The translations under genes were made by a program, and so were the position numbers. This document shows positions 49,836-64,000 of a stretch of DNA of 64,000 bases, piece after piece (the stretch's first letter is position 1; the number at the start of each line of letters is the position of its first letter). Origin of the DNA: a virus; the IMG/VR virus record IMGVR_UViG_3300010885_033832, positions 1-64,000 of that record; one strand, written 5' to 3'. The notes beneath the pieces were generated by a model. It was not told the origin of the DNA. It saw only the letters and a list, made by a program, of their open reading frames with translations, and searched no databases.

Positions 49836-50323
49836 TAGTTCTTGATCCTTTTGTACATTGCGCGGTAGGAAACCTTGGCCGCGTCGGCTAGTTCTTGAAT
49901 CTTAACGCCATTTTCATAGAGAGAGACAACAAGAATAGTGAGTTGCTGATTCGCGAGGGCGTAAGGGTGGTTGAGGGCGTGACGCGAACGGAAAAGTCGG
50001 GCTTGTTGGGAAAGGTACAAGATGGTTGACAGGTCGGTCGGGTTGACACCAGGCGAGGGAAGTCGACGATTGACGTACTCGGAGAGGTGTGGGATGGGGA
50101 TTGGGGTGGTATCCGTGGTTAGAGTGAGGGTTTCGTGGATCCAGTAGTGAAGAGCGCTTCTCGAACGTCGAGCGTGGCGGGGGAGGGCTTCTTGGATGGA
50201 GCGAAGAGTCCATCCTGCATTGAAGAGATCGCGTACTCGTTCGCGGAGGTGTTGAGGGGCGAGATCGTACAGGTAGACGGATTCACATTCGGGGAGGTGC
50301 TGTCCACGGGCTGACTTTCTCAT
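49835..50323 (-). CDS. Double helix-turn-helix DNA-binding protein
   Basis: GWTLRSIQEAL...SALHYWI and GVKIQELADAAKVSYRAMYKRI HTH-like segments. Confidence 0.7.
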   Translation of the reverse strand: MRKSARGQHLPECESVYLYDLAPQHLRERVRDLFNAGWTLRSIQEALPRHARRSRSALHYWIHETLTLTTDTTPIPIPHLSEYVNRRLPSPGVNPTDLSTILYLSQQARLFRSRHALNHPYALANQQLTILVVSLYENGVKIQELADAAKVSYRAMYKRIKN

Positions 50324-51113
50324 GGTTTCATTTTACGCCATATGTTCAGGACGGATAAAACTGAACAGAAGACGATGTTTTAGTACCTTTACGATAAATG
50401 CTTTTGGCCGGAGAGACGGATACGCGCTATTTTCGGGCCTTCGCGAAACGTTTCCAAAACACCGACGCCCCCCTTGCGCCACGTCGCCAAGTGTGGTAGG
50501 GGGTCAGTCTTTTCTAGAATGGTCGACCCCCTCCCCCTCCCCTGCCAATCATCATGTCGTGCCTGTCGACGACGACGAGGTCGAGGTGGTCATGATGCCT
50601 GACCTTGATGACAGGGGGGGTGGGGGTAGGGGCTGGCTAAGTCACCACCTAGTCAACGAGGTTGAGTCACCACCTGCCCACGCCCACCACCATCGAGCAT
50701 GCCTAACATCACTTGATGAGTGTGACAGTCACGAGGGGGCTGGGCTAGGTGATAGACATCAAGGCTAGTCGACTAGGCTACCTGCCTCGACGATGCCTCG
50801 AGGTGACCCTGACCACGACCCTGCCCAGCCTGCCAGCCCGACCACCCTGCCAGCCCACCCTGCCAGATAGGCTAGCCGCATGACCTTGATGGTCGATACA
50901 TATTGTCAGGGACCATGACCACTACACGAGAACACGTCGAGAGATGCATCGAGGCAGGGGGGTGGATGCATCGACAGGTATGCACATCAAGGTTGATGGA
51001 CTCGACTCGACCATGCTCACCCGACCGACCATCGAGGGGATGCCCCTAGGTACCCATCACCTCGAGGTACATCACCTAGGTAGGACGGCGTAAAAGGCTC
51101 ACCGCAAGGGGTG

Positions 51114-52910
51114 TCAGCGACTCGTGCCAGCGGTGGTCAGAGCCTTAGCCGCAAGGCGACCCACGACCTCGACGACGTTGACGACTGACCCATTCCCGAG
51201 GGGTACGAATTCAGCTGACCCTCGAGTGCAGAACGCCTTAGCCTTGGACAGGCCATAGTCTCCAGCACCTAGCCATAGCACGCCCACCCCGGCGCGAGCG
51301 GCCTGAGCCAACCGCGCATCGACGGCCTTGAGCTGGTCGAGGCGGTACTGCCCATCGGACACGATCACGAGTAAGCGAGCACCCTTGCCCTCGGTCAGGG
51401 TCAGCCCACCATCGAGCGCGAGGAACGCCTTGTCGAACTCCTCGGTCGAGTCGGGGGCAGTGTAGACCTGCACCTCGTTCAGGTGTTGTCCAGGCTTGAG
51501 CGTCGAGAACACGGACGACCCATAGTAGACCATGGCCACTCGCCCCTGAACTCGGCGTACTGCTTCGGATAGCACCCACGCAGTTGAGGCCATCGACTTC
51601 ATCGCCGAGCCCATCGAGCCACTGACATCGACCATCACCCCAATGGTCAGGGGTGGGTTGTCAACATGACGATGCTGGACTCGATTCCATGGCTCGACGT
51701 CGACCATCATCCCACGTGCACGTTGCGCCTGCCCCTGTACGAGAGCACGAGTTCGGAGTCGTCCAGGTGGTAGTCGACTGGCTGACTCGGTGCGAACGCG
51801 GTCACGATAACGGGCCTTCTCGAGTTGACGTGCGAGGAGTACTGCTGCCTGTCGTTCTTGAGCGTTGGGGGCACGGGTCTCAACGAGCTTGGACGAGGTC
51901 GAGCTACCCCTGACCACGGACTTGACACCAGCCTGAAACACCTCGCGAGCCATCGTCTTGGCCTGTGCACGCTCGTTGGCCTTGGCCCTGTTCTCGACCG
52001 ACCTCTCATCGTACTCAGCCATCTTGGCCTGCCTGCCTGCCTCGGACTCGACAGCCATCGTGACAGTGAATCCATCCTCGCCTAGTGCATCGAGCATCTC
52101 GCCCAACTGCTTGGACGTGAGGATCATGCCCTCCTTGCCCGACTGACCCTGACGTTCAGCCTCAGTGGTGATGATCGTGTTCCAGTCTCGCGCGAGGTCG
52201 ATCATCCCATCGACATCACCATGTGAGGTGACAGCGAACTTGGACCATACGCGAGACAGTGCATCGACGACCTCGTCCGACAGGACACGTCCCACGAATG
52301 CGCGGACGTTGACCACGTCCTCGTCGAGGAGGATGCCCACGTCACGTCGCCCGAGGATGAGCGTTGCCATCTTGGCAGCCTGCCTGACCTTGGGGATGTC
52401 ATCGTCGACGCCCACCTTGAGGTCGGACATTACGATGCCCATCGCCGATGCTCGGAGCATGATCTGATTCTCTGGGTACTCCAGAACACCTCGTGCCTCG
52501 ATACGTACCTCCTCGAGGACGACCATTGCATCCCATACACCAGCCTCGTGCTTGAGGCGTTCTTGGGTCGCCTCGAGTGGCCACAACGAGTATCGTGCAT
52601 GACACGCCTCGTGGAAGATTGCCCCTGTCGCCTTGGCATTCTCGAGCTGGACCACACGACGTGTGAAGTCACCAATCACCTCGGGGTTGCCATGGTCGAA
52701 CGCGATGTCGGAGTTGACCTCGATCTCGGACGTGGCAGGGTTGTACGCTGCGGGGGCACCATGGTCCATGCCTACCCATGGGCCGACGAATACAGTGAGG
52801 TCACCACGACCTGACCACTCGTTGACCATCGACCCAATCGAGGCACCGACCTTGAGCCACTTGGATGATGTGGTGCGACGTGCAACGACGCTGTGCCCGA
52901 AGTGTGTCAT
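51114..52910 (-). CDS. VWA (MIDAS) domain protein with N-terminal HExxH region, CobT-like partner of MoxR
   Basis: FHEACH...LEEVRIE; VDVSGSM MIDAS motif; VIVSDG. Confidence 0.85.
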   Translation of the reverse strand: MTHFGHSVVARRTTSSKWLKVGASIGSMVNEWSGRGDLTVFVGPWVGMDHGAPAAYNPATSEIEVNSDIAFDHGNPEVIGDFTRRVVQLENAKATGAIFHEACHARYSLWPLEATQERLKHEAGVWDAMVVLEEVRIEARGVLEYPENQIMLRASAMGIVMSDLKVGVDDDIPKVRQAAKMATLILGRRDVGILLDEDVVNVRAFVGRVLSDEVVDALSRVWSKFAVTSHGDVDGMIDLARDWNTIITTEAERQGQSGKEGMILTSKQLGEMLDALGEDGFTVTMAVESEAGRQAKMAEYDERSVENRAKANERAQAKTMAREVFQAGVKSVVRGSSTSSKLVETRAPNAQERQAAVLLARQLEKARYRDRVRTESASRLPPGRLRTRALVQGQAQRARGMMVDVEPWNRVQHRHVDNPPLTIGVMVDVSGSMGSAMKSMASTAWVLSEAVRRVQGRVAMVYYGSSVFSTLKPGQHLNEVQVYTAPDSTEEFDKAFLALDGGLTLTEGKGARLLVIVSDGQYRLDQLKAVDARLAQAARAGVGVLWLGAGDYGLSKAKAFCTRGSAEFVPLGNGSVVNVVEVVGRLAAKALTTAGTSR

Positions 52911-52918
52911 GCCCGGCC

Positions 52919-53992
52919 TCAGATACGCGAGGGGAGCATGGACTCACCAAAAGCACGACTGAAGACATCGGACACTACAGGTCGGTCCATCTCAGGCGCG
53001 GAGGCCAACAGGTTCTGAATCGCGAATCGTGCCCCGAACTTCTCGGTCACATCCCTGAATGCCAGGAGCTCACGGAGCTGTGGAGCCCACGACACGTCGC
53101 CTGACTCGAGGCGCTTGTTGAGGTTCTGGGCCGCGGTCACTGCGAGGCGTTCGACGCCCAGCTTCTTGGCCAGTGCCCAGTCCGTCGTCATCTCAGTCTG
53201 GATTGCGAATCGAGACAGCAACGCCTCGGACAGGTTGACACCTGGGGCGTGGGGATTCGTCGCGGCCACGATGAAGAATCCAGCCTGAGCCTTGACGGTC
53301 CCGCGTTCAGGGTTGGCAGTGACGGTGTACTCGCGACGACCATCCATCAGGCCATAGACCACGGACAGGACCTTGGGGTCGATGAGGCCGACCTCGTCGA
53401 TGAGAAGGACCTTGCCCTCCTCGGCTGCCTTGATGAGCGGGCCGTCGACCCACGAGAATCCATCGGGGGTCTGGATGTATCCGCCAACGAGGTCGGACAC
53501 CTCGGTGTCGCCCGAGCCCAAGATCGTGTACAGATTCGTCCCGAACGCGGCCTCGACCAGCGCGGTCTTGCCTGTGCCGGGCGGGCCATAGAACAACGAG
53601 TACAGCCCTGACTCACGTGCCTCGCGAAGGACATCGACGTCGACGTGCTCGCCCCACTTGCGCGTGTAGTACTTCTCTCCGTTGGGCCGGAGGAACGACT
53701 CGTCTTCGGTTGCGTTCGGGAGCATCTTCTTCTCTTCTAAGGACTTGGGAGGAATCATGGCTTTCGAGGGGGTCGAGCCATTCTGACCGCGACCACGTGC
53801 TCGTGAGGACGGCGTTGAGTATGCCTCGAAGTTGCCCGTGAGCATGTCGACGTCGGCCCACTTCGAGTCTACCTCACTGAGTAGGGCCGAGACGAGGATG
53901 TATGAGATCTCCTCAGGCAGGTGGATGTCCTTGCCATAGTGATCGGCCAGTCTCTTGTTGATCTTGAATGGTGATGTGCTGTACGTAGGCAT
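52919..53992 (-). CDS. MoxR-family (CobS/CbbQ-like) AAA+ ATPase
   Basis: GPPGTGKT, LLIDE, AATNP, LSEALLSRF, RELL. Confidence 0.9.
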   Translation of the reverse strand: MPTYSTSPFKINKRLADHYGKDIHLPEEISYILVSALLSEVDSKWADVDMLTGNFEAYSTPSSRARGRGQNGSTPSKAMIPPKSLEEKKMLPNATEDESFLRPNGEKYYTRKWGEHVDVDVLREARESGLYSLFYGPPGTGKTALVEAAFGTNLYTILGSGDTEVSDLVGGYIQTPDGFSWVDGPLIKAAEEGKVLLIDEVGLIDPKVLSVVYGLMDGRREYTVTANPERGTVKAQAGFFIVAATNPHAPGVNLSEALLSRFAIQTEMTTDWALAKKLGVERLAVTAAQNLNKRLESGDVSWAPQLRELLAFRDVTEKFGARFAIQNLLASAPEMDRPVVSDVFSRAFGESMLPSRI

Positions 53993-53994
53993 GG

Positions 53995-54627
53995 CTAGAC
54001 TGCACTCCCCGTTGTCAGCAGTGCAGGGATCGACTTGCCTATGGGCTCGGTCACGGACTCAGGGAATCCGGCGTCACGACGGACACGCTCGAGACGTCGG
54101 AGCAGGGCCGATGGGGTCTGCTTGCTATACGCCTCGCGAGCATCGGTGTCGGTCACCTCGATGTACAACGGCTTCTGGATCGCGTACACCTCGGGCTTGC
54201 CCATCATCGCACCGAGCCAGTCCATGATGTACTCGTACGCGTTGGAGTCCATGACTTCGGACACCACCTCTTGGACATCGAGGAGACGATCGAAGACGAG
54301 GCTCTGCTGCTCGATTCGGGTCATGTAGTGCATCTTCGGGGCGGTGACACTGCCAGCGCTATGCACGACGCCGCCCGAGCTCGAGAACGTTTCATTACGG
54401 ACTGAGCCATGAATCGCAGCGAATCGCCAACGGGCTCGAGGATTGGTCGGGGCGGTAGAGCGGTGGAAGATCGACGGCCACTTCCACTCCCGAGTGGTCA
54501 CGTCGCGGTGGGGTGGCATCACCAGCACCTGACGGGTGTAGACCTCGGTCCCATTCCCAGCGATGGGTCGGGCCTCAAGGTACAGTGCGAATCGTTTCGG
54601 TGGGGCTTTAGTGGTGACGACAGCCAT
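53995..54627 (-). CDS. Hypothetical protein
   Basis: 210 aa with GAAAGGA RBS, directly upstream of the AAA gene. Confidence 0.65.
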   Translation of the reverse strand: MAVVTTKAPPKRFALYLEARPIAGNGTEVYTRQVLVMPPHRDVTTREWKWPSIFHRSTAPTNPRARWRFAAIHGSVRNETFSSSGGVVHSAGSVTAPKMHYMTRIEQQSLVFDRLLDVQEVVSEVMDSNAYEYIMDWLGAMMGKPEVYAIQKPLYIEVTDTDAREAYSKQTPSALLRRLERVRRDAGFPESVTEPIGKSIPALLTTGSAV

Positions 54628-54657
54628 CAGAGTCCTTTCGTGGAGACGTAAGACTCA

Positions 54658-54888
54658 CTATACGCCCATGGCCTCCAGCGTCAAGCTAAGACACGCTGAG
54701 CACGAGATCTGCACATCACCATCGTCGGCCATCACGGCCCATCTCTCGGTGCCTTGAGCATCCTGACACCCAGCGCAGGCAATACTTCTACCCTCGTCGA
54801 CGATGCCTGACTTCTCAACGGCGTCGAGGTCACAGCGAAGTCCGGCGTCGAACTTGACGACCTCGAACGCGCGTACGGTCATGCTCAT
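54658..54888 (-). CDS. Small CxxC...CxxC zinc-binding protein (76 aa)
   Basis: ATG overlaps the terminase TGA; CAGC and CSAC motifs. Confidence 0.6.
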   Translation of the reverse strand: MSMTVRAFEVVKFDAGLRCDLDAVEKSGIVDEGRSIACAGCQDAQGTERWAVMADDGDVQISCSACLSLTLEAMGV

Positions 54889-56303
54889 CGGACCCTGAAC
54901 TTCGATCCGCCAGCACCCTGCTGACCGATGCCGGGCAGGGTGAATCGGCGACCTGCTGGTGACTTGGCTGATAGCCCACCACCGAGGAATCCAGCGGGTG
55001 GCTTGATGAGCAACGCGGTCAGTGCATGCACGAGGGCGTCGACGCGGTCGGGGGACTTGCCCTCGCCAGGGATCCACGACATCATCTGGGACTCGAGCTG
55101 AGGGAACACGCCCACGTGGTGGACACGGCCCTGCTCATACGCGAGGGTGATCGGCTCAGCGCGGAGTGCCTTGCCATACTTGGAGTGCACCTCGAGGACC
55201 TTGATCGTGGGGTCGATTGTGTGGATGGCGTTCTTGACGAGCGCCCCACCCTGATTGACCTCGGCGACAACGGGGCATCCCCACTTCTTGGCCGCGGCGA
55301 CAACGGCCTGTGCCCACACGGTGGGGGACCCGAGGATAGATGTATCCTCGAGTACCCATGACTGACGCTTATACAAGTCTCGTTCGCCCGTTGAGCCTAC
55401 CACGACGATGCCACACTCGTCCTTGGGGCTCTCGGCGACGGATGGGTCGACACCGATCACGCGCAGTGGCATCTGTGGCGGGTAGGCACCCTGTCGATAG
55501 TTGTCGATGATGTCTTCGGTCCAGAGCGCACCATCAACGGAGTCGAGCATCTCACCATAGAGCTCTTGAGCGGCGAGGGAAGTACCACCATAGACACCGA
55601 GCATGGTATCGAGGTACGCGCTCGACAGGTTCCCGGCGTTGTCCATCGTCGATCCGCGAGTGACACGGACGCGGTTGGGGTGTTCCTCGGATTCCTTGAG
55701 AAGTTCGCGGAGCATGGCCACGCGCTTCGGTGTGGTCGTGATCATGATCTTGGGGACGGCTCCGAGACGCGTAGCGATACGGAGGTTCTGCCACGCGGTC
55801 AGTCCCGAGTCGTCGGGCATCTGTCGCCAAGCGGCGGCCTCGTCGGCGAGTGACGCGTGGAACTGTGGACCACGGAGAAGGTTGGGTTCGTCGGCGGAGA
55901 ACGTCGTCGCGATGGTTCCGTTGGGCCACGTCAGTCGTCGCTTCGACGGCTCGTACAGTGGCATCTCACTCGGTGGTGAGATCGACATAATCCCTGACTG
56001 TCCTTCGACCACAACGTCGCGGGCGTCGGCGGCTGTACGGGCAACGATGGCGATACGCTTCGGCCCTGTCTTACTGATGTCGCGGGCTTGCTCTCTGAGC
56101 CACTCGGCTCCGGTCCGGGTCTTACCCCAACCACGACCCGCGAGGGCAATCCAGATGTTCCAGTCACCATCCGGCGCGTGTTGTTCGGGGCGACCCCAGA
56201 ACGACCAATCCCACAGCAGACCCTCGGGGTCCATACCTGCCATCATCCGAGCGCGATCGTCGGGGGATAGCTCAGCGATTACCTGCGCGAGTGACTTCGA
56301 CAT
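54885..56303 (-). CDS. terL: Terminase large subunit
   Basis: AGRGWGKT Walker A, LRGPQF--SLADEAAAW Walker B, TTTP, VIGVDPS and DRVDAL nuclease motifs. Confidence 0.93.
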   Translation of the reverse strand: MSKSLAQVIAELSPDDRARMMAGMDPEGLLWDWSFWGRPEQHAPDGDWNIWIALAGRGWGKTRTGAEWLREQARDISKTGPKRIAIVARTAADARDVVVEGQSGIMSISPPSEMPLYEPSKRRLTWPNGTIATTFSADEPNLLRGPQFHASLADEAAAWRQMPDDSGLTAWQNLRIATRLGAVPKIMITTTPKRVAMLRELLKESEEHPNRVRVTRGSTMDNAGNLSSAYLDTMLGVYGGTSLAAQELYGEMLDSVDGALWTEDIIDNYRQGAYPPQMPLRVIGVDPSVAESPKDECGIVVVGSTGERDLYKRQSWVLEDTSILGSPTVWAQAVVAAAKKWGCPVVAEVNQGGALVKNAIHTIDPTIKVLEVHSKYGKALRAEPITLAYEQGRVHHVGVFPQLESQMMSWIPGEGKSPDRVDALVHALTALLIKPPAGFLGGGLSAKSPAGRRFTLPGIGQQGAGGSKFRVR

Positions 56304-56325
56304 GACACAATCCTACCTAAAGGTT

Positions 56326-56351
56326 GGACCCCCTAGAAAACTAGGGGGTCC
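56326..56351 (-). terminator. Hairpin between thioredoxin and terminase genes
   Basis: GGACCCCCTAG-AAAA-CTAGGGGGTCC perfect 11-bp inverted repeat. Confidence 0.65.
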
Positions 56352-56373
56352 CGACGGCGACGACAGCAGGGCG

Positions 56374-56694
56374 TTATACGAGGTAGTCCGATAGGTCAGA
56401 CTCGAGGGCTGGGCGTGGCTTCGCGCCGACAATTGTCTTGACGACTTCTCCGCCAACGAACACCTTCATCGTCGGAATCGAGACAACACCATACGCGGTG
56501 GGTGTCTCGGGATCCTCTTCGATGTTCAGCTTCACGATTGTAAGGCTGGGGTATTCATCGGCGATAGCGTCAAGTACTGGACCAACGGCGCGGCAGGGGC
56601 CACACCATTCAGCCCAGAAGTCAACGAGGACCGGACCCTCGGCGCTGAGCACATCGGCGTCGAAGGTCGAGTCGGTTGTTTTTCCAGCGGGCAC
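56374..56694 (-). CDS. trxA: Thioredoxin
   Basis: VLVDFWAEWCGPC active site, SIPT cis-Pro motif, GAKP. Confidence 0.95.
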   Translation of the reverse strand: MPAGKTTDSTFDADVLSAEGPVLVDFWAEWCGPCRAVGPVLDAIADEYPSLTIVKLNIEEDPETPTAYGVVSIPTMKVFVGGEVVKTIVGAKPRPALESDLSDYLV

Positions 56695-57068
56695 TACACA
56701 ACCACCTTGACGGTGTTGTCACCCTTGAAGATAGCCTTGAGTGTATCGGCGTTGAGGACGTCGGTCACCTCGAGTCGGTTCTTCGACTGGAACTGCTGAA
56801 CGGCGATCTGGGTACCGTTCTGGTAGACACCGGGCTTGTCCCCAATTACGGACACGAACTCAAGTTCGCGGAGGCGACGCTGAAGTTCGGTGACGCTGGT
56901 GGACTCGCGCTGGTGCAGTGGGTTCTGCAGAATCGCAGCGAGCACAACCTGAACGGCGGTGCTCGGTGCTTCGACAGACGCGGGGGCAGACGGCGCAGCG
57001 GGCTTGGACGGAGTCGAGGCGGGCTCGAAGGGTTCGGGGACGATGGAGTCGATGTTGTTATCAGTCAT
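56694..57068 (-). CDS. Peptidoglycan-binding-domain protein
   Basis: VTELQRRLRELEF...GVY--GTQIAVQQFQ...LEVT motif; start reassigned to MTDNNID from the leaderless -10. Confidence 0.7.
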   Translation of the reverse strand: MTDNNIDSIVPEPFEPASTPSKPAAPSAPASVEAPSTAVQVVLAAILQNPLHQRESTSVTELQRRLRELEFVSVIGDKPGVYQNGTQIAVQQFQSKNRLEVTDVLNADTLKAIFKGDNTVKVVV

Positions 57069-57088
57069 GGAATTCATTCTACCGAAGG

Positions 57089-57274
57089 TTACTCACCCTT
57101 ACTCGAGAGGACGGCGAGCGCCACCGCGGCCAGTCCTAGAGCTTGGATAGTAGCGAACGGATTACCGAGATCGACGGCGACGACTATCGCAGCGACGGCG
57201 AGCGCCAGCGCGACGACAGGTAGCCAGTTGGTGTTGCTGATGATGAAACGGATTCGTCGGAGTAGTTGATTCAT
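57089..57274 (-). CDS. Small two-TM membrane protein (holin-like)
   Basis: Two hydrophobic helices; next to the peptidoglycan-binding gene. Confidence 0.55.
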   Translation of the reverse strand: MNQLLRRIRFIISNTNWLPVVALALAVAAIVVAVDLGNPFATIQALGLAAVALAVLSSKGE

Positions 57275-57286
57275 ACCGAAATCCTA

Positions 57287-57466
57287 TCACGACTCTTCAT
57301 CGCGGATCGTGGCCCGGAGATCGTCGGCGCGAGTACGTCGGCGCTTCGTGCGCTTGTCGGCATGCGTTCCCCACGCGTTCGATTGGGCGCGCTCGGCGTC
57401 TGCCCGTGCCTTGTCTGGATTCGCAGCGGGCACGTAACGGCGTGGCTTCTTGTCGTCGGCGCTCAT
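57287..57466 (-). CDS. Small basic protein (59 aa)
   Basis: MSADDKKPRR...AWGTHADKRTKRRRTR; TACAAT 6 nt before ATG. Confidence 0.6.
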   Translation of the reverse strand: MSADDKKPRRYVPAANPDKARADAERAQSNAWGTHADKRTKRRRTRADDLRATIRDEES

Positions 57467-57709
57467 CCCCCCATTGTACCGCGAGCGCCGGAGTCCCGTC
57501 AACGGCGCTCAGCGCCTCTCTGACGGCGTAACGCGTTCCGGCCACTACGACAGACGGCCTGCCGGAGTGACGCGTCTAACGACGGCGCAGAGCGTCGGCG
57601 AGCGCCTAACGGCGTCGGCGTCCGGCGTCCGCGATCGCAGCGCAACGGCGAGCGCCGACCAACGGCGAAACGCCCAACCGTTTCCACTCGGCTGGGCGTT
57701 TCGTCGGCG

Positions 57710-57925
57710 CTAGTTGTTCGGGTCGAATTCTTCGACGTGGCGGACGTTGCAGACTTCGCAGTCGTCGACGATGGCGAGCGCCTTACCGTCGGCGAAGTAC
57801 TGGAACGTGGCGGGCTGGTTGTGGAGCGTGGTGTCGTCGTTGTCCCAGCCACAGGCTCGGAATCCAAACTCTCCCTCGTTCTCGGCGACGCACCCGTTTG
57901 GGTCGGTGTCGTAGTATCCGCTCAT
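57710..57925 (-). CDS. Cassette gene: Cys-containing hypothetical protein (71 aa)
   Basis: GAAAGGA RBS, own promoter and downstream hairpin at 57666-57703. Confidence 0.7.
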   Translation of the reverse strand: MSGYYDTDPNGCVAENEGEFGFRACGWDNDDTTLHNQPATFQYFADGKALAIVDDCEVCNVRHVEEFDPNN

Positions 57926-58137
57926 TGTGTTTCCTTTCGTCGCGGTCGGCGTTTCCTCCCGCGTAATCAGTCTATCGGCGGGCACCGACATGTAATAGCC
58001 TCCCCTCCCCGACTGTGGCCGGAATCAGGCCGGCCATCGATGGCCACAACGTCACGACGACGAGCGCCGAAGTCGCCGCGGACAGTCGACGCAGACGACG
58101 AAACGCCTACCCTTTCGGGTAGGCGTTTCGGAGGGAC

Positions 58138-58383
58138 TCACGCCTGAGGGTAGGCGCGAGTGGACAGGCTCTCGGTGCTCTGAGCGAGTCGGGCAAACGT
58201 CTTCGCGAGACGGTACAGTGCGTCTCCGACGACGACGCGGACGCGGTACTCGGCGTCGACCTTCGGCGTGAAGGGGTAATCCTCCGTGATGGTCGCAACG
58301 ATGTCGGCATAGCACGTCGCGCAGACTGCGTCGTACGCTCCGTCGGCGAAGTTGGCAGAGCAAAGGCGCTCGTCGTGGTACAT
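58138..58383 (-). CDS. Cassette gene: hypothetical protein (81 aa)
   Basis: GAAAGGA RBS, MYHDERLC...CATC; hairpin at 58099-58130. Confidence 0.7.
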   Translation of the reverse strand: MYHDERLCSANFADGAYDAVCATCYADIVATITEDYPFTPKVDAEYRVRVVVGDALYRLAKTFARLAQSTESLSTRAYPQA

Positions 58384-58530
58384 GGTCGATTCCTTTCGGT
58401 TGGGGAGGCGTGTTCCTCCGTGACTCCACTCTATTGGCGAGCGCCGACATGTAACGGTATCCCCTCCCCATCGGCGAGCGCCGCACAACGACAAACAGCC
58501 TCCCCGAAGGGAGGCTGTCGGTCGTCCAAG

Positions 58531-58725
58531 TCAGGCGAAGTCGGGGAGGTGATACTTTGCGGCGAGAGCGGATTCCATTGCTTGGAGCGAGGCGATGGAC
58601 TCGGCGATGTGGTCGCGCATATCTCCGACCTCGTTCGCTTTCCACAGCACCATCGCGTCGGTGAGTGACGCGGCGGCGGCCGCGTAGTTTGACAGCACAG
58701 CGCTGTCGGTAGCGTCGTACAACAT
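58531..58725 (-). CDS. Cassette gene: hypothetical helical protein (64 aa)
   Basis: GAAGGAG RBS; hairpin at 58495-58518. Confidence 0.7.
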   Translation of the reverse strand: MLYDATDSAVLSNYAAAAASLTDAMVLWKANEVGDMRDHIAESIASLQAMESALAAKYHLPDFA

Positions 58726-58836
58726 GGTGACTCCTTCGATTCGGGAGGCGTGTTCCTCCGTGATATCAGACTACGGCACGGCACGGACAAACAACAACCT
58801 CCCCTCCCCGAATCGGGAGGAGAGGTTGTCGGCGCG

Positions 58837-59031
58837 TCAGAGGATTATCGGCTCAACGACTAGGCGCGTTTCGTTCAGCGCACCGCAACCGCACCGATAC
58901 CATTGCGCGATTCGACCATCGGTGCGCCAGATGATATGAATGGTCGGGTGTTCGTGACCGACTCGGCATCGTGGGCAACGGTGATTCAGCGGGGAACGGC
59001 GTTCCTCCGTCTGGATGATATCGTCTAACAT
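58837..59031 (-). CDS. Cassette gene: zinc-ribbon-like protein (64 aa)
   Basis: CPRC...CGC; GAAAGGA RBS. Confidence 0.7.
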   Translation of the reverse strand: MLDDIIQTEERRSPLNHRCPRCRVGHEHPTIHIIWRTDGRIAQWYRCGCGALNETRLVVEPIIL

Positions 59032-59128
59032 TCGGGATTCCTTTCGTTCGTGATTCCAGACTACGGCCGCAACGGCATAGACGGCGATAGCCCCCCTGAC
59101 GGTGTGTCAGAGGGGCTACCGTATGGCG

Positions 59129-59365
59129 TTACGCTTGGCGAGCGTATCGGGCAACCGCATCGGCAATTCGCGTACCGATGTAGTCGGGCGTGAGCATCGA
59201 ACGGCGAGGCGCGCGTGCTTGGGCGAACCGTCCAGAGGTGTTGCCGACCTCGTGAACGATGACAACATAATCGCTACGCGAGATGTTGCCGAGGTAGCGG
59301 AGTAGGTACTCCGCACCCTCGTAGGTGAACGGCGTGAGGGTGCCGCGTTTGAGTGTGATGGACAT
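59129..59365 (-). CDS. Cassette gene: hypothetical protein (78 aa)
   Basis: AAAGGAGG RBS; flanked by promoter and hairpin. Confidence 0.72.
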   Translation of the reverse strand: MSITLKRGTLTPFTYEGAEYLLRYLGNISRSDYVVIVHEVGNTSGRFAQARAPRRSMLTPDYIGTRIADAVARYARQA

Positions 59366-59456
59366 TGTGTCCTCCTTTCGTTTTCAGACTACGGCATACC
59401 CCCGACACGAAACAACCAACCCCCACCGCATAGGCGGTGAGGGTTGGCGTTTGGCG

Positions 59457-59687
59457 TTACCGCGAGCGCCGAAGACTACGGCGGTACACTTCTTCCCCGA
59501 CATTCCAACTGAGTAGGGCAGAGGCGACAACGATACAACCGACAACCATAACGCGGTCGAATGTAGCGTTGTAGGACAGTCCCGACATCTCGGCGGAACG
59601 GGCGAGGCTATCGGCGGTAAGCGCGGTGACAACCGCAACCGCATACAGCCCCAGCGCCATAAGGGCGCGGAATCGACGAATGGACAT
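59457..59687 (-). CDS. Cassette gene: two-TM membrane protein (76 aa)
   Basis: Two hydrophobic segments; AAAGGAG RBS. Confidence 0.68.
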   Translation of the reverse strand: MSIRRFRALMALGLYAVAVVTALTADSLARSAEMSGLSYNATFDRVMVVGCIVVASALLSWNVGEEVYRRSLRRSR

Positions 59688-59790
59688 TCCATTCTCCTTT
59701 CGTTGGTGATATCAGATTACAACGGCGAGCGCCGAAACGGCAACAACCCCCCACCGCATAAGCGATAGGGGGTTGTCGGCGGCGACTACT

Positions 59791-59895
59791 TCATCGGTTG
59801 AAGACGAAGTCGAGGTCGTGCGTGTGGTACGCAATTCCCTCGGTGTCGCGAGTACCGCACTCGGGGCACGGGTCGGTGAGGTCACCAGTAGCCAT
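59791..59895 (-). CDS. Cassette gene: CxxC microprotein (34 aa)
   Basis: AAGGAGG RBS; MATGDLTDPCPECG...HTHD. Confidence 0.6.
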   Translation of the reverse strand: MATGDLTDPCPECGTRDTEGIAYHTHDLDFVFNR

Positions 59896-60017
59896 AAGAG
59901 TCACCTCCTTGGGGCAACGGCGTGGGGCGTGTCCCCCACGCCGACAACGATACGCGGCCCCACGCCGACAACGCAACAACCCCCCACGCCGATTGGCGTG
60001 AGGGGCTGTTGGTGGCG

Positions 60018-60419
60018 TTACTCGGCGGTGGCTTCGGCGGTAACGGGGGCGTTCGCGTTGGACACTACAACGCGCTTGGCTTCAGCGGTACACCAGAACA
60101 GGTCGTGACCGAGCGTTTCCGCTTCGATTTCGACATTCGTTCCCGTGCGGTCGTCGGTCTGCCAATCGCGAACGCGCAAGCGACCGACGACTACGATACG
60201 GTCGCCCTTGTTCAGCGACGCCATTGAGTTCACGGCGAGAGCGCGGAACGCCGTGACCGTGTACCAATTGGTCGAAGCGTCAAGCCACTTTTCAGTAGCC
60301 TTGTCGTATCGTCGCTGTGACGACGCGAGGCGGAATGAAGTGATGGGCAGACCTTCTGCCGTCACGATATGGCGTGGTGTCGTGGCGATAAGCCCCGTCA
60401 CCGTGAGCGTGTCGCTCAT
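60018..60419 (-). CDS. ssb: Single-stranded DNA-binding protein (short, no acidic tail)
   Basis: OB-fold motifs SFRLASSQRRYD, WYTVTAF--LA-N, KGDRIVVVGRL, EIEAETLGHDL; start at MSDTLTV. Confidence 0.92.
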   Translation of the reverse strand: MSDTLTVTGLIATTPRHIVTAEGLPITSFRLASSQRRYDKATEKWLDASTNWYTVTAFRALAVNSMASLNKGDRIVVVGRLRVRDWQTDDRTGTNVEIEAETLGHDLFWCTAEAKRVVVSNANAPVTAEATAE

Positions 60420-60532
60420 GTGATTCTCCCTTGCTTGTGTGAGCCGTGTTGCCCACACCTCAACGATAGCGCGGCCACACCCGACAACGCAACAACCCCC
60501 CCACCGCATAAGCGATAGGGGGTTGTCGGCGG

Positions 60533-60712
60533 TTAGACAGGTTCGTTGTTGATTGTTCCGTTGGCGCAGGCTTGGTTGTATTCCTCAACTAGTCGCGTTG
60601 CGTTGTCCACTACGATAAAGTTCGCACCTACTCCCTCACCGAAGATACCCTCTTCGGTAATCGCGCGAGTGATGAGCGTGTGGGCTTGTTTCAGGATTTC
60701 GTAATCCGTCAT
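60533..60712 (-). CDS. Cassette gene: hypothetical protein (59 aa)
   Basis: Manual translation MTDYEILKQAHTLITRAITEEG...; GAAAGGA RBS; not in the ORF track. Confidence 0.65.
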   Translation of the reverse strand: MTDYEILKQAHTLITRAITEEGIFGEGVGANFIVVDNATRLVEEYNQACANGTINNEPV

Positions 60713-60780
60713 TTCGTTCCTTTCGTTCGGTTGAGAGTGTAGCGCGCCACCGTGTTCCCAACGGTGGCGCGCCGTGTCAC

Positions 60781-60963
60781 CTATTCGGTGACGGTGGCGT
60801 TCGCCGTGTTATCGGCGTTAGCCGTAGAGAGCTTTTCGATTTGGGCGTTGATTTCGCCCAACCGCATAGCGTTCTCCACCATCAACTCTGCCACCGTGTT
60901 TCGCATTTCTTTTAGGGTGGCGATTGAGTTTTCCAGAAACTCAATCTGTTCTTGCTTGTCCAT
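60781..60963 (-). CDS. Cassette gene: coiled-coil protein (60 aa)
   Basis: MDKQEQIEFLENSIATLKEM...; GAAAGGT RBS. Confidence 0.65.
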   Translation of the reverse strand: MDKQEQIEFLENSIATLKEMRNTVAELMVENAMRLGEINAQIEKLSTANADNTANATVTE

Positions 60964-61071
60964 TGGACACCTTTCGATTAGCGGGGCGTGTTCCCCACAT
61001 TCACAACGATACGCCGAACGCCGAACAAACGCCAACACCCCCCACCTTTCGGCGGGGGGTGTCGCGTTCCG

Positions 61072-61197
61072 TTATTTCAGTTTGTCCAAGATTGCCATTA
61101 TCTCGGCGCGTTGTGCTTCGGGCAACGCTTCGATTCGTTCCGCAGCGTCGGGGACGAAAAGGCTATCCAAATCGTCGGGGTTAGTCCAGTCGAACAT
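61072..61197 (-). CDS. Cassette gene: acidic microprotein (41 aa)
   Basis: MFDWTNPDDLDSLF...; GAAAGGA RBS. Confidence 0.62.
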   Translation of the reverse strand: MFDWTNPDDLDSLFVPDAAERIEALPEAQRAEIMAILDKLK

Positions 61198-61302
61198 TGT
61201 TTCCTTTCGGGGGCGGTTCCCCCATACCGCAAAGGTAGCACCGGCATCGGCCAGAACGCAAACACCCCCCACACCGTTAGGCGTAGGGGGCGTTCGTTCG
61301 CG

Positions 61303-61485
61303 TTACTTGTTCTTGGACTTGGTGAACGGTGAGTGGTTCATCGCGTAGATGTATTGGCGTTGACGGCGATTGAACCGTGGGCGGTGCTTGAGCAGATAGA
61401 ACCAGTTGATCGTGAATAGCGTGACGGCGATACCCGTCACGAAACTCGCGACAACCGTCACGATGAATATCGTGTCGTTGGACAT
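61303..61485 (-). CDS. Cassette gene: single-TM protein (60 aa)
   Basis: MSNDTIFIVTVVASFVTGIAVTLFTINWFYLL followed by a basic tail. Confidence 0.65.
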   Translation of the reverse strand: MSNDTIFIVTVVASFVTGIAVTLFTINWFYLLKHRPRFNRRQRQYIYAMNHSPFTKSKNK

Positions 61486-61550
61486 TGTTTCCCTCTCGTG
61501 AGAGTTGGGAACGGTGTGACCCTCTCGCGAGAGCCACACCGTTCGATGGA

Positions 61551-61838
61551 CTAGGGGAGGCGAACCGAAGTCACCGAAGCGACATTGGTGAACTCGCCTT
61601 TGGATACCGCTTCCGCGATAGCAGGGTACGCCGAGAGAATGGATTTGGTGTCCGTTGTCTTGCGTTCGGTGACGGTTACGCGAGCGATTGTCTGCCCTTT
61701 GTATTCCACCGTTCCCTCGCCGACCGCGCCGATGATGAGCGCGCGGAGCGTTTCACTCTGCTTGGTGAGTGTGTCGATTTCCGCCTTGAGAGCGCGGAAC
61801 TCGGCGACCGCGTCAGCGACCTTTTTGGTTACGACCAT
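61551..61838 (-). CDS. Cassette gene: hypothetical protein (95 aa)
   Basis: MVVTKKVADAVAEFRALKAEID...; GAAAGGA RBS. Confidence 0.7.
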   Translation of the reverse strand: MVVTKKVADAVAEFRALKAEIDTLTKQSETLRALIIGAVGEGTVEYKGQTIARVTVTERKTTDTKSILSAYPAIAEAVSKGEFTNVASVTSVRLP

Positions 61839-61950
61839 TGTCGTGTCCTTTCGTTGGGAGAGGGCGTGTCCCTCTCGTGATTCCACTCTACGCGGCCACA
61901 CCCGACAAACGCAAACACCCCCCACCTTTCGGTGGAGGGTGTTCGTGGCG

Positions 61951-62205
61951 TTAGCCGATGTAGCGAGCGTAAACGGTAACGCGCTTACTGCGGTTGGAGT
62001 TCTTGCGCGAAGTCGCTTCAAACGACCCAGCAGGGGTGAATCCAATCAAGATACCTCGCTTGATTGACACCACATAACTTGCTGGTGCGTTGTCGCTAAC
62101 GACGGCCCATTCTCCTGGATTTGCTTTGAGGGCTTTAGCAATCGCCCCGTACTTACCTGTTTGCACAGCGCGCTTCGGCGGTGCTTCCCAGCGGATTTTT
62201 ACCAC
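61951..62205 (-). CDS. Cassette gene: putative DNA-binding protein (84 aa)
   Basis: WEAPP...LKANPGEWAVV...FEATSR...VYARY pattern common in actinophages; AAAGGAG RBS. Confidence 0.68.
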   Translation of the reverse strand: MVKIRWEAPPKRAVQTGKYGAIAKALKANPGEWAVVSDNAPASYVVSIKRGILIGFTPAGSFEATSRKNSNRSKRVTVYARYIG

Positions 62206-62313
62206 GTCTCTCCTTTGCGAGGGGCGTGTCCCCTCTCGGTTCTACTTTACGACCAGAGCGAACACAACGCAAACAACCCCCCCACCCGATAGGGCAGGGG
62301 GGCGCGGTTGGGG

Positions 62314-62406
62314 CTAGTACCCGAACACCCACTCACCTTTGTGTTCGCAGGTGAAGAGCGCACCGCACTCGTCGCACGGCACTAGCACAATCTCTTCGTT
62401 GTCCAT
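62314..62406 (-). CDS. Cassette gene: CxxC microprotein (30 aa)
   Basis: Manual translation MDNEEIVLVPCDECGALFTCEHKGEWVFGY; AAAGGAG RBS, own promoter and hairpin. Confidence 0.58.
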   Translation of the reverse strand: MDNEEIVLVPCDECGALFTCEHKGEWVFGY

Positions 62407-62516
62407 CGGTTCTCCTTTGTTGGCAGGGCGTGTTCCCCACATCTCCACCGTACGCGATCGTGGGGCGAACCGACAAACACCCCCCACCCTTTCGGGTGAG
62501 GGGCGTTCGGTTCAGG

Positions 62517-63005
62517 CTACCAACTTGCTCGGTAGGTGAAGTCACAATCGGCGAGTGACTTGTTGGCGAGTATCTGCGAGAGTTCGTCACGAGTGGTTTC
62601 CAAGTCCTTCCAGTACCACTCGTCAATCTCGGTCGAACCGAAGAAGAAGCCAGCCTGTGGTGGCAGGTGTTCTTCCGCGATTGCCGTTCGGTTTGCTTCG
62701 CTCGCGCCGAGAATGATGTCGCACAGGTTTCGCAACGCTTCCAAGCCGTCACGCGGTACGCCGATTTCTTGGCACTCGTCAAGCCCATCAGCGAAGTTGC
62801 TCACGAACCATTGGTGAATGGCGTTCGCTTTCCGCCAATACATTACCGTCACAGCGAGGGTCGCAGACGGCGAGTATTCGGGCAGTATCGCAGGGTCGAA
62901 CCCTGCCGTTTCCAGCACACTCGCAAACTGCTCGCGGTCTGCTTCGGGTCGGTGTTCCCAACCCGATAGGTACTTCTCGGCAGATAGATACATATCCAGT
63001 CCCAT
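62517..63005 (-). CDS. Cassette gene: conserved phage protein (MGLDMYL...YWRKANAIH-WF family)
   Basis: Recognisable widespread phage family: YWRKANAIHQWFV, LPPQAGFFFGS, YRASW. Confidence 0.8.
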   Translation of the reverse strand: MGLDMYLSAEKYLSGWEHRPEADREQFASVLETAGFDPAILPEYSPSATLAVTVMYWRKANAIHQWFVSNFADGLDECQEIGVPRDGLEALRNLCDIILGASEANRTAIAEEHLPPQAGFFFGSTEIDEWYWKDLETTRDELSQILANKSLADCDFTYRASW

Positions 63006-63114
63006 TATGTTTCCTTTGCTTGGTGTGAACCGTGTTGCTCACATTTCCAAACTACGGCACCGGCGGCCACAACGCAAACAACCCCCCACCGTGAGGTGAG
63101 GGGTTGCTCGGCGG

Positions 63115-63321
63115 TCACTCGTATTGAGCGTGGATTACATCCCAGCAGGGGAAGCAGTACGGCTCTCCGTTGTCGCGGTGAGTTTTCTTACCACAGGCAT
63201 CACAGGGAACTTTCCCCTCTCCACCGTCATAGCACGAATAGCAGGTGTAACCGTCTTCTTCGAGAATGTCCTCGTCGAGTTGGTCGCAGGTACAGGTCGG
63301 GTTGTTCGGGTTCTTTTTCAT
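63115..63321 (-). CDS. Cys-rich zinc-binding protein (68 aa)
   Basis: CTC, CYSC, CDAC, CFPC; ATG overlaps the upstream TGA. Confidence 0.65.
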   Translation of the reverse strand: MKKNPNNPTCTCDQLDEDILEEDGYTCYSCYDGGEGKVPCDACGKKTHRDNGEPYCFPCWDVIHAQYE

Positions 63322-63449
63322 CAGTTCCCCTCGCAATCGTGTCCGTAGGACAGTTCCTGCTCGTCAACCTCGTTGGTCGGGTCGAACACTCGCGAGCATT
63401 CGACACACTTGAGCAGAAGTCCTGCTCGCGTAATGGTGAGTTCCATCAT
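63321..63449 (-). CDS. Cassette gene: CxxC...HxC microprotein (42 aa)
   Basis: Manual translation MMELTITRAGLLLKCVECSRVFDP...YGHDCEGN; GAAAGGA RBS. Confidence 0.62.
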   Translation of the reverse strand: MMELTITRAGLLLKCVECSRVFDPTNEVDEQELSYGHDCEGN

Positions 63450-63514
63450 CTCGGTTCCTTTCAGGGGCGGTTCCCCTCTACTTCCAATCTACGCGATCGG
63501 GGCGCAAACGCAAA

Positions 63515-63608
63515 GTACCCCCCGAGCGAAAGGGATAACTCTCGGGGGGCGTTTCTTTGTGTGTGGCGTTACCGTCAAGGGGTAAACACGATTCCCTGAC
63601 AACCACTC
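63515..63608 (-). ncRNA. Candidate ~90-nt small RNA (ORF-less cassette)
   Basis: Extended -10 TGTGG-TAGCCT (63614-63624), hairpin GUCAGGG/CCUUGAC with a loop containing CGUGUU, terminator hairpin at 63518-63549, no RBS-led ORF inside. Confidence 0.45.
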
Positions 63609-63691
63609 CGTCTAGGCTACCACACCGTGACGCGCGCAAAATACCAAAACAACGAACCCCCCTACCGAAGTAGAGGGGTTCGCGGTGACCG

Positions 63692-64000
63692 TCAGACGGT
63701 GAGGTTGCTTGCTTGGATTTCAGCGAGCGAGCGCGGTTCCCAGTAGAGGTCGCGTTCGACCATCATTCCCATCGGACCGACCACGCCTGAGAGTTCCGAG
63801 AGCGAGAAGTATCCCAACTCCATCTCGAAGCCGTTGACCAGACCGAAGAACTGGTCTTCGCCATCGAACTCGGTTGCGTACCAAGTCCAGTTCGCCCAGG
63901 GGGTGAAGTACTTGACCGTAGCCATCGTTTCCTCAAGCGACTTGTTCTCGTTCGTGTAGAGCGGTGGAAGTGCTGCGCGCACCTCGTCGTTCATCAGTTC
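63692..64000 (-). CDS. DUF2958-like protein (5' end may lie outside the window)
   Basis: LPPLY, VKYFTPWANWTWYATE, FFGLV-GFE-ELGYFSL-EL, ERDLYW. Confidence 0.8.
   Translation of the reverse strand, partial: ELMNDEVRAALPPLYTNENKSLEETMATVKYFTPWANWTWYATEFDGEDQFFGLVNGFEMELGYFSLSELSGVVGPMGMMVERDLYWEPRSLAEIQASNLTV

Follow-up and report, generated by a model that had tools for sequence, protein, structure and literature searches.

An ORF-less unit in an array of small-gene cassettes

The window analysed here is the first 64 kb (64,000 nucleotides) of a 95.4-kb freshwater virus record from IMG/VR (IMGVR_UViG_3300010885_033832), whose completeness is estimated at ∼56%. Judging from the terminase, the nearest cultured relatives are the Actinomycetia phage DSL-LC01 (67% amino acid identity) and large Microbacterium phages; searches in near and distant modes found no close DNA relatives among deposited phages. 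Towards the end of the window, in a region where all genes lie on the minus strand, a unit at 63512–63624 comprises an extended −10, a 5′ hairpin and a terminator and contains no ORF. It belongs to an array of ∼30 self-contained cassettes that extends from 76.6 kb down to 57.6 kb of the record and thus beyond the window. Each cassette is built from a GC-rich terminator, a −35, a TANNNT −10, a 5′ hairpin, a GAAAGGA-type ribosome-binding box and a small ORF. The promoters combine a TANNNT(gg) −10 with a TTGCGT or TTGACN −35, the latter placed within the tail or the apex of the preceding terminator (28 cassettes). The loop of the 5′ hairpin begins at a fixed distance of 12–14 nt past the −10, and the ribosome-binding box CGAAAGG is found in 26 copies on the coding strand of the array. 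At the downstream end, two minus-strand cassettes (58440–58505 and 57960–58015) share a different upstream motif, GGGGAGGGGA..TTACATGTCGG.GC.CGCC.ATAGA.TG, which replaces the usual terminator/−35 arrangement and may be another promoter class or an operator.

The gene located immediately upstream of the unit (63692–63994) encodes a DUF2958 protein and ends at an intrinsic terminator (T1, 63652–63683, minus strand) with a 14-bp stem, a UUCG loop and a U-rich tail. The products of ten neighbouring genes were assigned to DUF2958, to SSB or to no family, and no RNA-binding domain was found in any of the ten. Two SSB-like paralogues occupy separate cassettes, one at 60018–60419 of the window and the other at 64463–64786 of the record, beyond the window. 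Also beyond it, the minus strand of record positions 64330–64420 contains a short hydrophobic ORF of ∼29 aa (VLIFVLIVLPNV...) that follows a terminator and has no obvious Shine-Dalgarno (SD) sequence or leader hairpin. Elsewhere in the window, the minus strand of 31385–44662 is taken up by a single ORF of 4425 aa, and the counterpart position in DSL-LC01 holds a 3289-aa hypothetical protein.

The array is mosaic between this record (G000) and a close relative, IMGVR_UViG_3300027499_000013 (G001), which is ∼92% identical over the neighbourhood; the two differ by cassette-sized replacements and indels. Strains X6 and X17 likewise show a 219-nt, cassette-sized deletion (window 63104–63322) bounded at terminator/promoter motifs. 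This deletion removes a 68-aa Cys-rich ORF (63115–63321), and 17 other bases stand in its place.

Anatomy and predicted fold of the unit

An earlier note on this DNA, made from the sequence alone, had described the unit as the only gene-less cassette, with an extended −10 and a terminator like those of its neighbours and with no ORF led by a ribosome-binding site. The first of these statements holds for the whole array. No SD-led ORF was detected in the unit, and all the frames that cross it are shifted in G001 by a 1-nt indel, so that no ORF is conserved. The extended −10, TGTGG-TAGCCT, is present at 63624–63614 of the minus strand and belongs to the TGnGnTAnnnT type. The likeness to the neighbours proved to be partial: the unit does have the extended −10 and the terminator, but its promoter has no usable −35 and the terminator loop measures 14 nt, compared with 3–8 nt in the other terminators, which makes it the sole large loop among the ∼28 of the array.

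Transcription from the −10 is predicted to start near 63607, in a region (GGAGUGG) that resembles the neighbours' GAGGUGUGG. RNAfold returned the same hairpin that the earlier note had drawn, with the stems GUCAGGG and CCUUGAC closing a 13-nt loop (AAUCGUGUUUACC, 63593–63581), and extended it by an outer helix, GUGGU/GCCAC. The resulting 5′ hairpin (63563–63606) thus consists of the outer helix, a 5-nt bulge, an inner 8-bp helix and the loop. At the centre of the loop lies CGUGUU (63585–63590), hereafter seed 1; its six bases are unpaired with probabilities of 0.88–1.0, as the note had proposed, and opening them costs 0.14 kcal/mol. A single-stranded, A/C-rich spacer (63551–63562), which resembles a decayed SD box (CAAAGAAAC), separates this hairpin from the terminator hairpin T2 (63550–63517). 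T2 has a 10-bp GC stem and is followed by a U-rich tail (63516–63505) that overlaps the −35 of the next cassette. Its 14-nt loop, to which the note had paid no attention, carries CCUUUCG (63527–63533, seed 2), the complement of the CGAAAGG ribosome-binding box. Six of the seven bases of seed 2 are unpaired with a probability of 0.77–1.0, and the remaining base with 0.27.

Considered alone, the 5′ hairpin folds with −15.4 kcal/mol on the minus strand and with −11.0 kcal/mol on the plus strand, where the fold is weaker because of three G-U pairs. Fold z-scores were modest (−2.3 for the whole unit and −1.5 for the 5′ hairpin). A cmscan of 50000–64000 with E values of up to 1 found no known RNA family on the unit, and no tRNA was found there.

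In the promoter, no −35 is found 16–18 nt from the −10, and the only candidate, TTGCGC, is located 14 nt upstream. When scored with a matrix built from 28 neighbouring promoters, the unit reached −25.6, far below all 28 (median, +23.6), a value that 38% of the TANNNT sites in the record attain. The −10 does fit the actinobacterial extended −10 form TGnGnTAnnnT, and, from its sequence, transcription from it is possible. One metatranscriptome run that shares sequence words with the window gave no contig at this place, which is uninformative either way.

Both enlarged loops mirror conserved motifs of the leaders

The earlier note had further claimed that CGUGUU is the exact reverse complement of the AACACG loop in six leader hairpins and that it would pair through G-U with three GACACG versions. 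The first claim was borne out. AACACG hexaloops were located at 63036, 62434, 60992, 60450, 58754 and 58414, on the minus-strand hairpins 63024–63043, 62423–62440, 60981–60998, 60437–60458, 58744–58759 and 58404–58419, respectively. As for the second, three (G)ACACG loops do exist, but only one is a hexaloop (GACACG at 59933, hairpin 59918–59943); the other two (62230 and 61870, hairpins 62219–62235 and 61858–61876) are ACACG pentaloops in which the G is paired and only five loop bases are free. Seed 1 is therefore the perfect complement of the commonest leader loop, and its predicted targets are nine leader loops located 17–28 nt upstream of start codons. In the two SSB-like paralogues mentioned above, which both begin with MSDT, GACACG also occurs in the first codons and matches seed 1 as well.

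We found 22 leaders with an RACACG loop in G000 and G001 taken together. They represent 10 stem types, and all of them keep (A/G)ACACG; a loop that remains unchanged on ten stem types is therefore under selection. The probability of finding CGTGTT by chance within a 13-nt loop is 1.1 × 10−3 to 2.5 × 10−3. On the coding strand of the array this hexamer occurs in only three copies, and that of the unit is the only non-coding one.

We then compared both loops with shuffled versions that kept the base composition of the loop, counting the leaders with an accessible site at −4 kcal/mol or below, net of target opening. This test is stricter than the chance figure for CGTGTT, its null being broader: for loop 1, any accessible site common to at least 10 leaders counted. 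Loop 1 reached 10 of the 28 leaders, a number matched by 2.75% of the shuffles, and 5% of them matched the summed energy. Loop 2 was predicted to pair with the SD box in 22 of the 28 leaders, which 0.75% of the shuffles equalled. Multiplied, the two fractions give ∼2 × 10−4, and with both loops combined 27 of the 28 leaders were reached. Seed 2 was found after looking, once the first test had been done, and had not been predicted; in addition, two further terminators of the array contain CCTTTCG in a partly paired state. For these reasons we regard the loop statistics as moderate, not strong, evidence. Both seeds are also short, 6 nt for the first and 7 nt for the second, and the net energies predicted for them are no better than about −5 to −7 kcal/mol.

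Six leaders have a deviant SD box and hence no seed 2 site; five of these carry a seed 1 site, with a Fisher estimate of p ∼0.013 that is confounded by the shared ancestry of the cassettes, and the pattern is only suggestive. Beyond the seeds, extended antisense complementarity to the unit's 5′ hairpin was best for the leader at 62423–62440, and even this case was not significant against shuffles. Perfect complementarity of 9–11 nt between the candidate RNA and other transcripts in the record was at chance level. Two further lines were discarded: whole-molecule RNAduplex scores were uninformative, as long, loop-rich duplexes are allowed, and a YUNR U-turn (UUUA) in loop 1 would present the wrong bases.

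Position and conservation of the unit among strains

The unit occupies a particular position in the array. All the RACACG leaders are located downstream of it (9 in G000 and 14 in G001), and none is present among the 17–20 leaders upstream of it in these genomes. In both genomes the unit thus heads the RACACG block, with only one AACCG cassette in between. The promoters of the upstream and downstream groups of cassettes are alike.

The unit is present in five haplotypes, always at the same place; in addition to the two IMG/VR records, it was recovered from Logan contigs of three further freshwater runs (X4, X6 and X17). In G001, 63571–63634 shows no changes, and the six that were found in the unit lie in its 3′ half. 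All of them affect positions predicted to be unpaired (bulge, spacer, terminator loop or tail; two of them are in the spacer 63551–63562) and none affects a seed, the chance of six out of six being ∼0.01. Seed 2 is kept in G001, where the base immediately 5′ of it differs. The perfect run of 64 nt is not exceptional in the alignment with G001, in which other runs measure 58 and 49 nt. In run X4, a 90-nt unitig (63535–63624) that includes seed 1 is common to two haplotypes, which differ by ∼10–15% on both flanks (12 substitutions and 3 gaps to one side of it; 18 and 3, respectively, to the other). The earlier note had asked for conservation of CGUGUU in relatives, and the hexamer is indeed invariant both in G001 and in this unitig. 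The block that is invariant in relatives begins at ∼63634, and it reflects either purifying selection or recent modular exchange; in both cases the unit has been kept. No variation of seeds or targets, and no compensatory change between them, was seen in G001 or the other strains.

No further relatives carrying the unit turned up in the collections searched. A pattern scan for the hairpin with a free loop matched only G001 among viral contigs. Among metagenome contigs, the same pattern matched two more G001-type copies and 41 unrelated sequences. Of the latter, 38 are one conserved element (on contigs among L028–L070, several labelled as human-gut metagenome), which has a hairpin GGTTGTCAGGGGAC...GTCCCTTGACGG, conserved flanks and three sequence variants. 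A scan of genome contigs revealed no host copy, and the ideas of a CRISPR-repeat mimic or a homologue of a host small RNA are not supported. A covariance model of the unit found neither paralogues nor distant homologues in 249 kb of fetched loci. Distant relatives reached through the terminase (L005–L010) or the DUF2958 neighbour (L022–L026) have other leaders and, in the DNA fetched, no comparable unit.

A parallel element in phage DSL-LC01

DSL-LC01 has the same genome plan, with 27 cassettes and a different promoter, TAAAGnnGTTATART. Its leader is unstructured and ends in ACGACGAAAGG, a motif present in 16 copies, on the plus strand only and all within 24.0–43.4 kb. The 9-mer complement of this motif, TTCGTCGTT, occurs twice on the coding (plus) strand in the 129 kb of DSL-LC01, once inside a gene. 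The only non-coding copy is located in the 14-nt loop of a 14-bp hairpin (L076:17277–17319, ∼41339–41381 of the DSL-LC01 record), whose loop contains the complement of the leader motif AACGACGAA and which lies in a 293-nt ORF-less gap of the array. This hairpin folds with −28.6 kcal/mol (z = −4.8), and the remainder of the 293-nt gap is also highly structured. At the sequence level, leader motif and loop of the ORF-less hairpin differ together between this phage and DSL-LC01, which is the nearest thing to co-variation. The minus strand of the DSL-LC01 loop resembles a leader with a spoiled SD, suggesting that anti-leader loops may arise from inverted copies of leaders. The second, anti-SD loop and the anti-leader hairpin of DSL-LC01 strengthen the idea of a regulatory RNA beyond what the earlier note had claimed.

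Leaders of the form GGGG-AACACG-CCCC were also found singly in three unrelated phage contigs, and no partner RNA like the unit was seen in the parts of these contigs that were fetched. One of the three, IMGVR_UViG_3300006879_000403, contains a minus-strand array of at least 8 cassettes with a conserved promoter, TGATAGACTGTATATAACAAC; its leader hairpins combine a constant GGGG/CCCC stem with varied A-rich loops (AAAGG, GAACAAG, GACAAG, GCAAG, AACACG, GAAAG and GACAG). The layout of Microbacterium phage Cece is heterogeneous and in part leaderless, and we were unable to map it to this scheme. In Cece (L080, 3.6–17 kb), the motif GTTTAGTG(C/G)C...ACTCTTGCGC is repeated in many intergenic regions, in both orientations and beside promoters, and looks like a dispersed operator.

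Other explanations for the unit

The unit might instead be an inert, empty cassette, left over from recombination between terminator-promoter motifs after its ORF was removed or never received. It would then play no role in trans, and its complementarities would be due to chance or to descent from leader or terminator sequences. We regard this as improbable. The mosaic structure of the array, with strain differences that amount to whole-cassette indels bounded at motifs, speaks for such an origin, and so do the normal order of the parts (the −10, the GGAGUGG start, the hairpin and the SD-like spacer), the degraded-looking promoter and the presence of CCTTTCG in two other terminators. The identical 90-nt block, too, could be the product of recent exchange and not of selection, given that such arrays shuffle. 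However, an empty cassette would hardly persist in one location through five haplotypes, its core unchanged while the flanks diverge by 10–15%, and with substitutions that spare the paired positions and both seeds. It would also leave two independent oversized loops that complement shared leader motifs, at the joint shuffle fraction given above, as well as an analogous element in DSL-LC01, to coincidence. Descent from a leader bears directly on this point, and the earlier note had named an inverted, decayed copy of a leader hairpin as a possible origin; alignments to the 28 leaders in inverted and direct orientation were no better than those of shuffled sequences, so that no leader can be named as the source in either orientation, a result that neither establishes nor excludes such a copy.

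It is likewise unlikely, in our view, that the unit encodes a small RNA directed at something else, such as host mRNAs, a protein that it would sponge or the downstream gene in cis, and that the RACACG loops are read by an RNA-binding protein of the phage or the host. Hairpins bound by proteins classically show a conserved loop on co-varying stems: boxB is read by lambda N, and operator hairpins are read by coat proteins. The RACACG leaders resemble boxB/N-type sites in just this respect, with an invariant loop on variable, co-varying stems (10 stem types in 22 leaders), and the fixed spacing of the loop from the −10, the occurrence of AACACG leaders in unrelated phages with no visible partner RNA and the shortness of the seeds all agree with recognition by a protein. 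Against it, no RNA-binding domain was found in the ten neighbouring products, though most of them have no known family. Host genomes gave no match to the hairpin, and the record shows no long complementarity beyond chance to suggest another target. This explanation also does not account for the match of both oversized loops to the phage's own leader motifs, nor for the parallel in DSL-LC01.

Finally, we consider it very unlikely that the unit is a boundary between two cassette classes that acts in cis or at the DNA level, without any function of a diffusible RNA; a double terminator, an insulator, a recombination site and a signal for replication or packaging would be examples. In favour of this, the unit lies exactly between the varied-loop upstream cassettes and the RACACG downstream cassettes in both genomes, T1 and T2 are 130 nt apart and the −10 hexamer comes close to a palindrome (TAGCCT, with TAGGCT on the opposite strand). 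Against it, the G-U pairs make the fold strand-specific in favour of a minus-strand RNA, promoters that are alike in the two classes create no obvious need for insulation, and the two complementary loops would be left unexplained.

Comparison with known regulatory RNAs and phage arrays

C/U-rich loops are used by small RNAs such as RNAIII of S. aureus (acting on rot and spa), RsaE and LhrC of Listeria, which target the SD regions of multiple chromosomal genes, and OxyS forms a two-site kissing complex with fhlA. The candidate RNA shares with them pyrimidine-rich loop seeds against SD regions or leader loops, the joint use of two sites and the many targets that have a motif in common; by analogy, it may work like a multi-target anti-SD small RNA with an additional kissing-loop contact. 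It differs from them in that the regulator and its presumed targets lie in one phage array, in that one seed aims at a dedicated hexaloop at the very 5′ end of the mRNAs and in the lack of any sequence relation.

In the kissing pairs RNA I/RNA II of ColE1 and CopA/CopT of R1, recognition starts with a contact between loops of 6–7 nt. These RNAs are cis-encoded and fully complementary, and the kiss extends to a long duplex. Recognition by complementary hairpin loops is predicted here too, but complementarity beyond the loop is weak, even in the best case, the leader at 62440.

The precedent invoked by the earlier note was that of the P1 c4 and P4 CI RNAs. The c4 RNA of P1/P7 and the CI RNA of P4 are phage small RNAs in which short complementary segments act on the leaders of phage mRNAs (PMC12197685). 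As a principle, short loop segments directed at phage leaders, the precedent applies, but the c4 family itself was not matched: the unit has no Rfam match to C4 or to any other family. Like c4, the candidate RNA is phage-encoded, is not antisense to its own locus and would use short segments that are likely presented by loops. In c4, both segments pair within a single leader of its own operon, at two sites, and the RNA is processed from that operon's transcript. Here the presumed targets are many separately promoted mRNAs, and the contacts would be a kissing site on a 5′ hairpin and an anti-SD site; seeds and target sites are not arranged in colinear order, and the setting is a lytic-type actinophage array and not an immunity locus.

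The array itself has a counterpart in the PeSL elements of T4-type phages, where a conserved terminator and an early-promoter motif frame small, mostly unknown genes and indels are bounded at these motifs (PMC4122927). With a terminator stem-loop fused to a promoter in 28 cassettes and motif-bounded indels, the array described here is the actinophage equivalent. It differs in the phage lineage, in its actinobacterial TANNNT promoters, which do not follow the T4-type sigma-70 consensus, and in the leader hairpin that its cassettes also bear; moreover, the work on PeSL covers shuffling and not an RNA directed against leaders (PMC4122927).

A candidate dual-seed anti-leader RNA

The proposal that we favour, and to which we give about an even chance of being right, is that the ORF-less cassette is the gene for a dual-seed anti-leader small non-coding RNA of ∼95 nt (from ∼63607 to ∼63512, minus strand). 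The suggestion of the earlier note, a phage small RNA that controls a regulon of dispersed genes, survives in part, in that the unit is a conserved non-coding module with a single-stranded apical loop complementary to the commonest leader loop; its weak and atypical promoter speaks against it. We infer that the RNA is transcribed, that it pairs in vivo and that its effect is negative, as well as the timing of this effect and a need of the promoter for other factors.

According to this proposal, an RNA of ∼95 nt would be made from the extended −10 and end at T2. It would be composed of the same parts as the neighbouring cassettes (−10, 5′ hairpin and terminator), with both loops enlarged (13 and 14 nt) so that each displays a short antisense seed that mirrors a different one of the leaders' two conserved single-stranded motifs. 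Seed 1 would form a kissing contact with the 5′-terminal (A/G)ACACG hexaloop of nine cassette mRNAs (14 in G001), and seed 2 would pair with the CGAAAGG box of most cassette mRNAs. As the 3′ end of the kissed hexaloop is 17–28 nt before the start codon, the contact would fall at the upstream edge of the 30S footprint or just outside it. Once paired, the RNA would mask the ribosome-binding site or crowd it, and it might also open the 5′ hairpin that protects the mRNA. The expected outcome is a reduced initiation, perhaps accompanied by a faster decay, since 5′ stem-loops are likely mRNA stabilisers, so that the cassette mRNAs would be lowered as a group.

More tentatively, with somewhat less than an even chance, we propose that phages with arrays of small-gene cassettes carry a dedicated anti-leader master RNA whose enlarged loops mirror leader motifs that are private to the array (in this phage the 5′ hexaloop and the SD box) and which switches the whole array down, motif and loop changing together between lineages as they do between this phage and DSL-LC01. 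Because DSL-LC01 is cultured, the idea can be tested there directly. It would also provide a sequence rule that can be searched for in metagenomes, namely a leader motif matched by the loop of one ORF-less unit. The timing and the shut-off of the dozens of small early genes of large lytic phages are poorly understood outside a few model phages. If the proposal is true, one small RNA acting on 20–30 separately promoted mRNAs would constitute a compact post-transcriptional master switch, and this would explain why such arrays keep private, highly uniform leaders.
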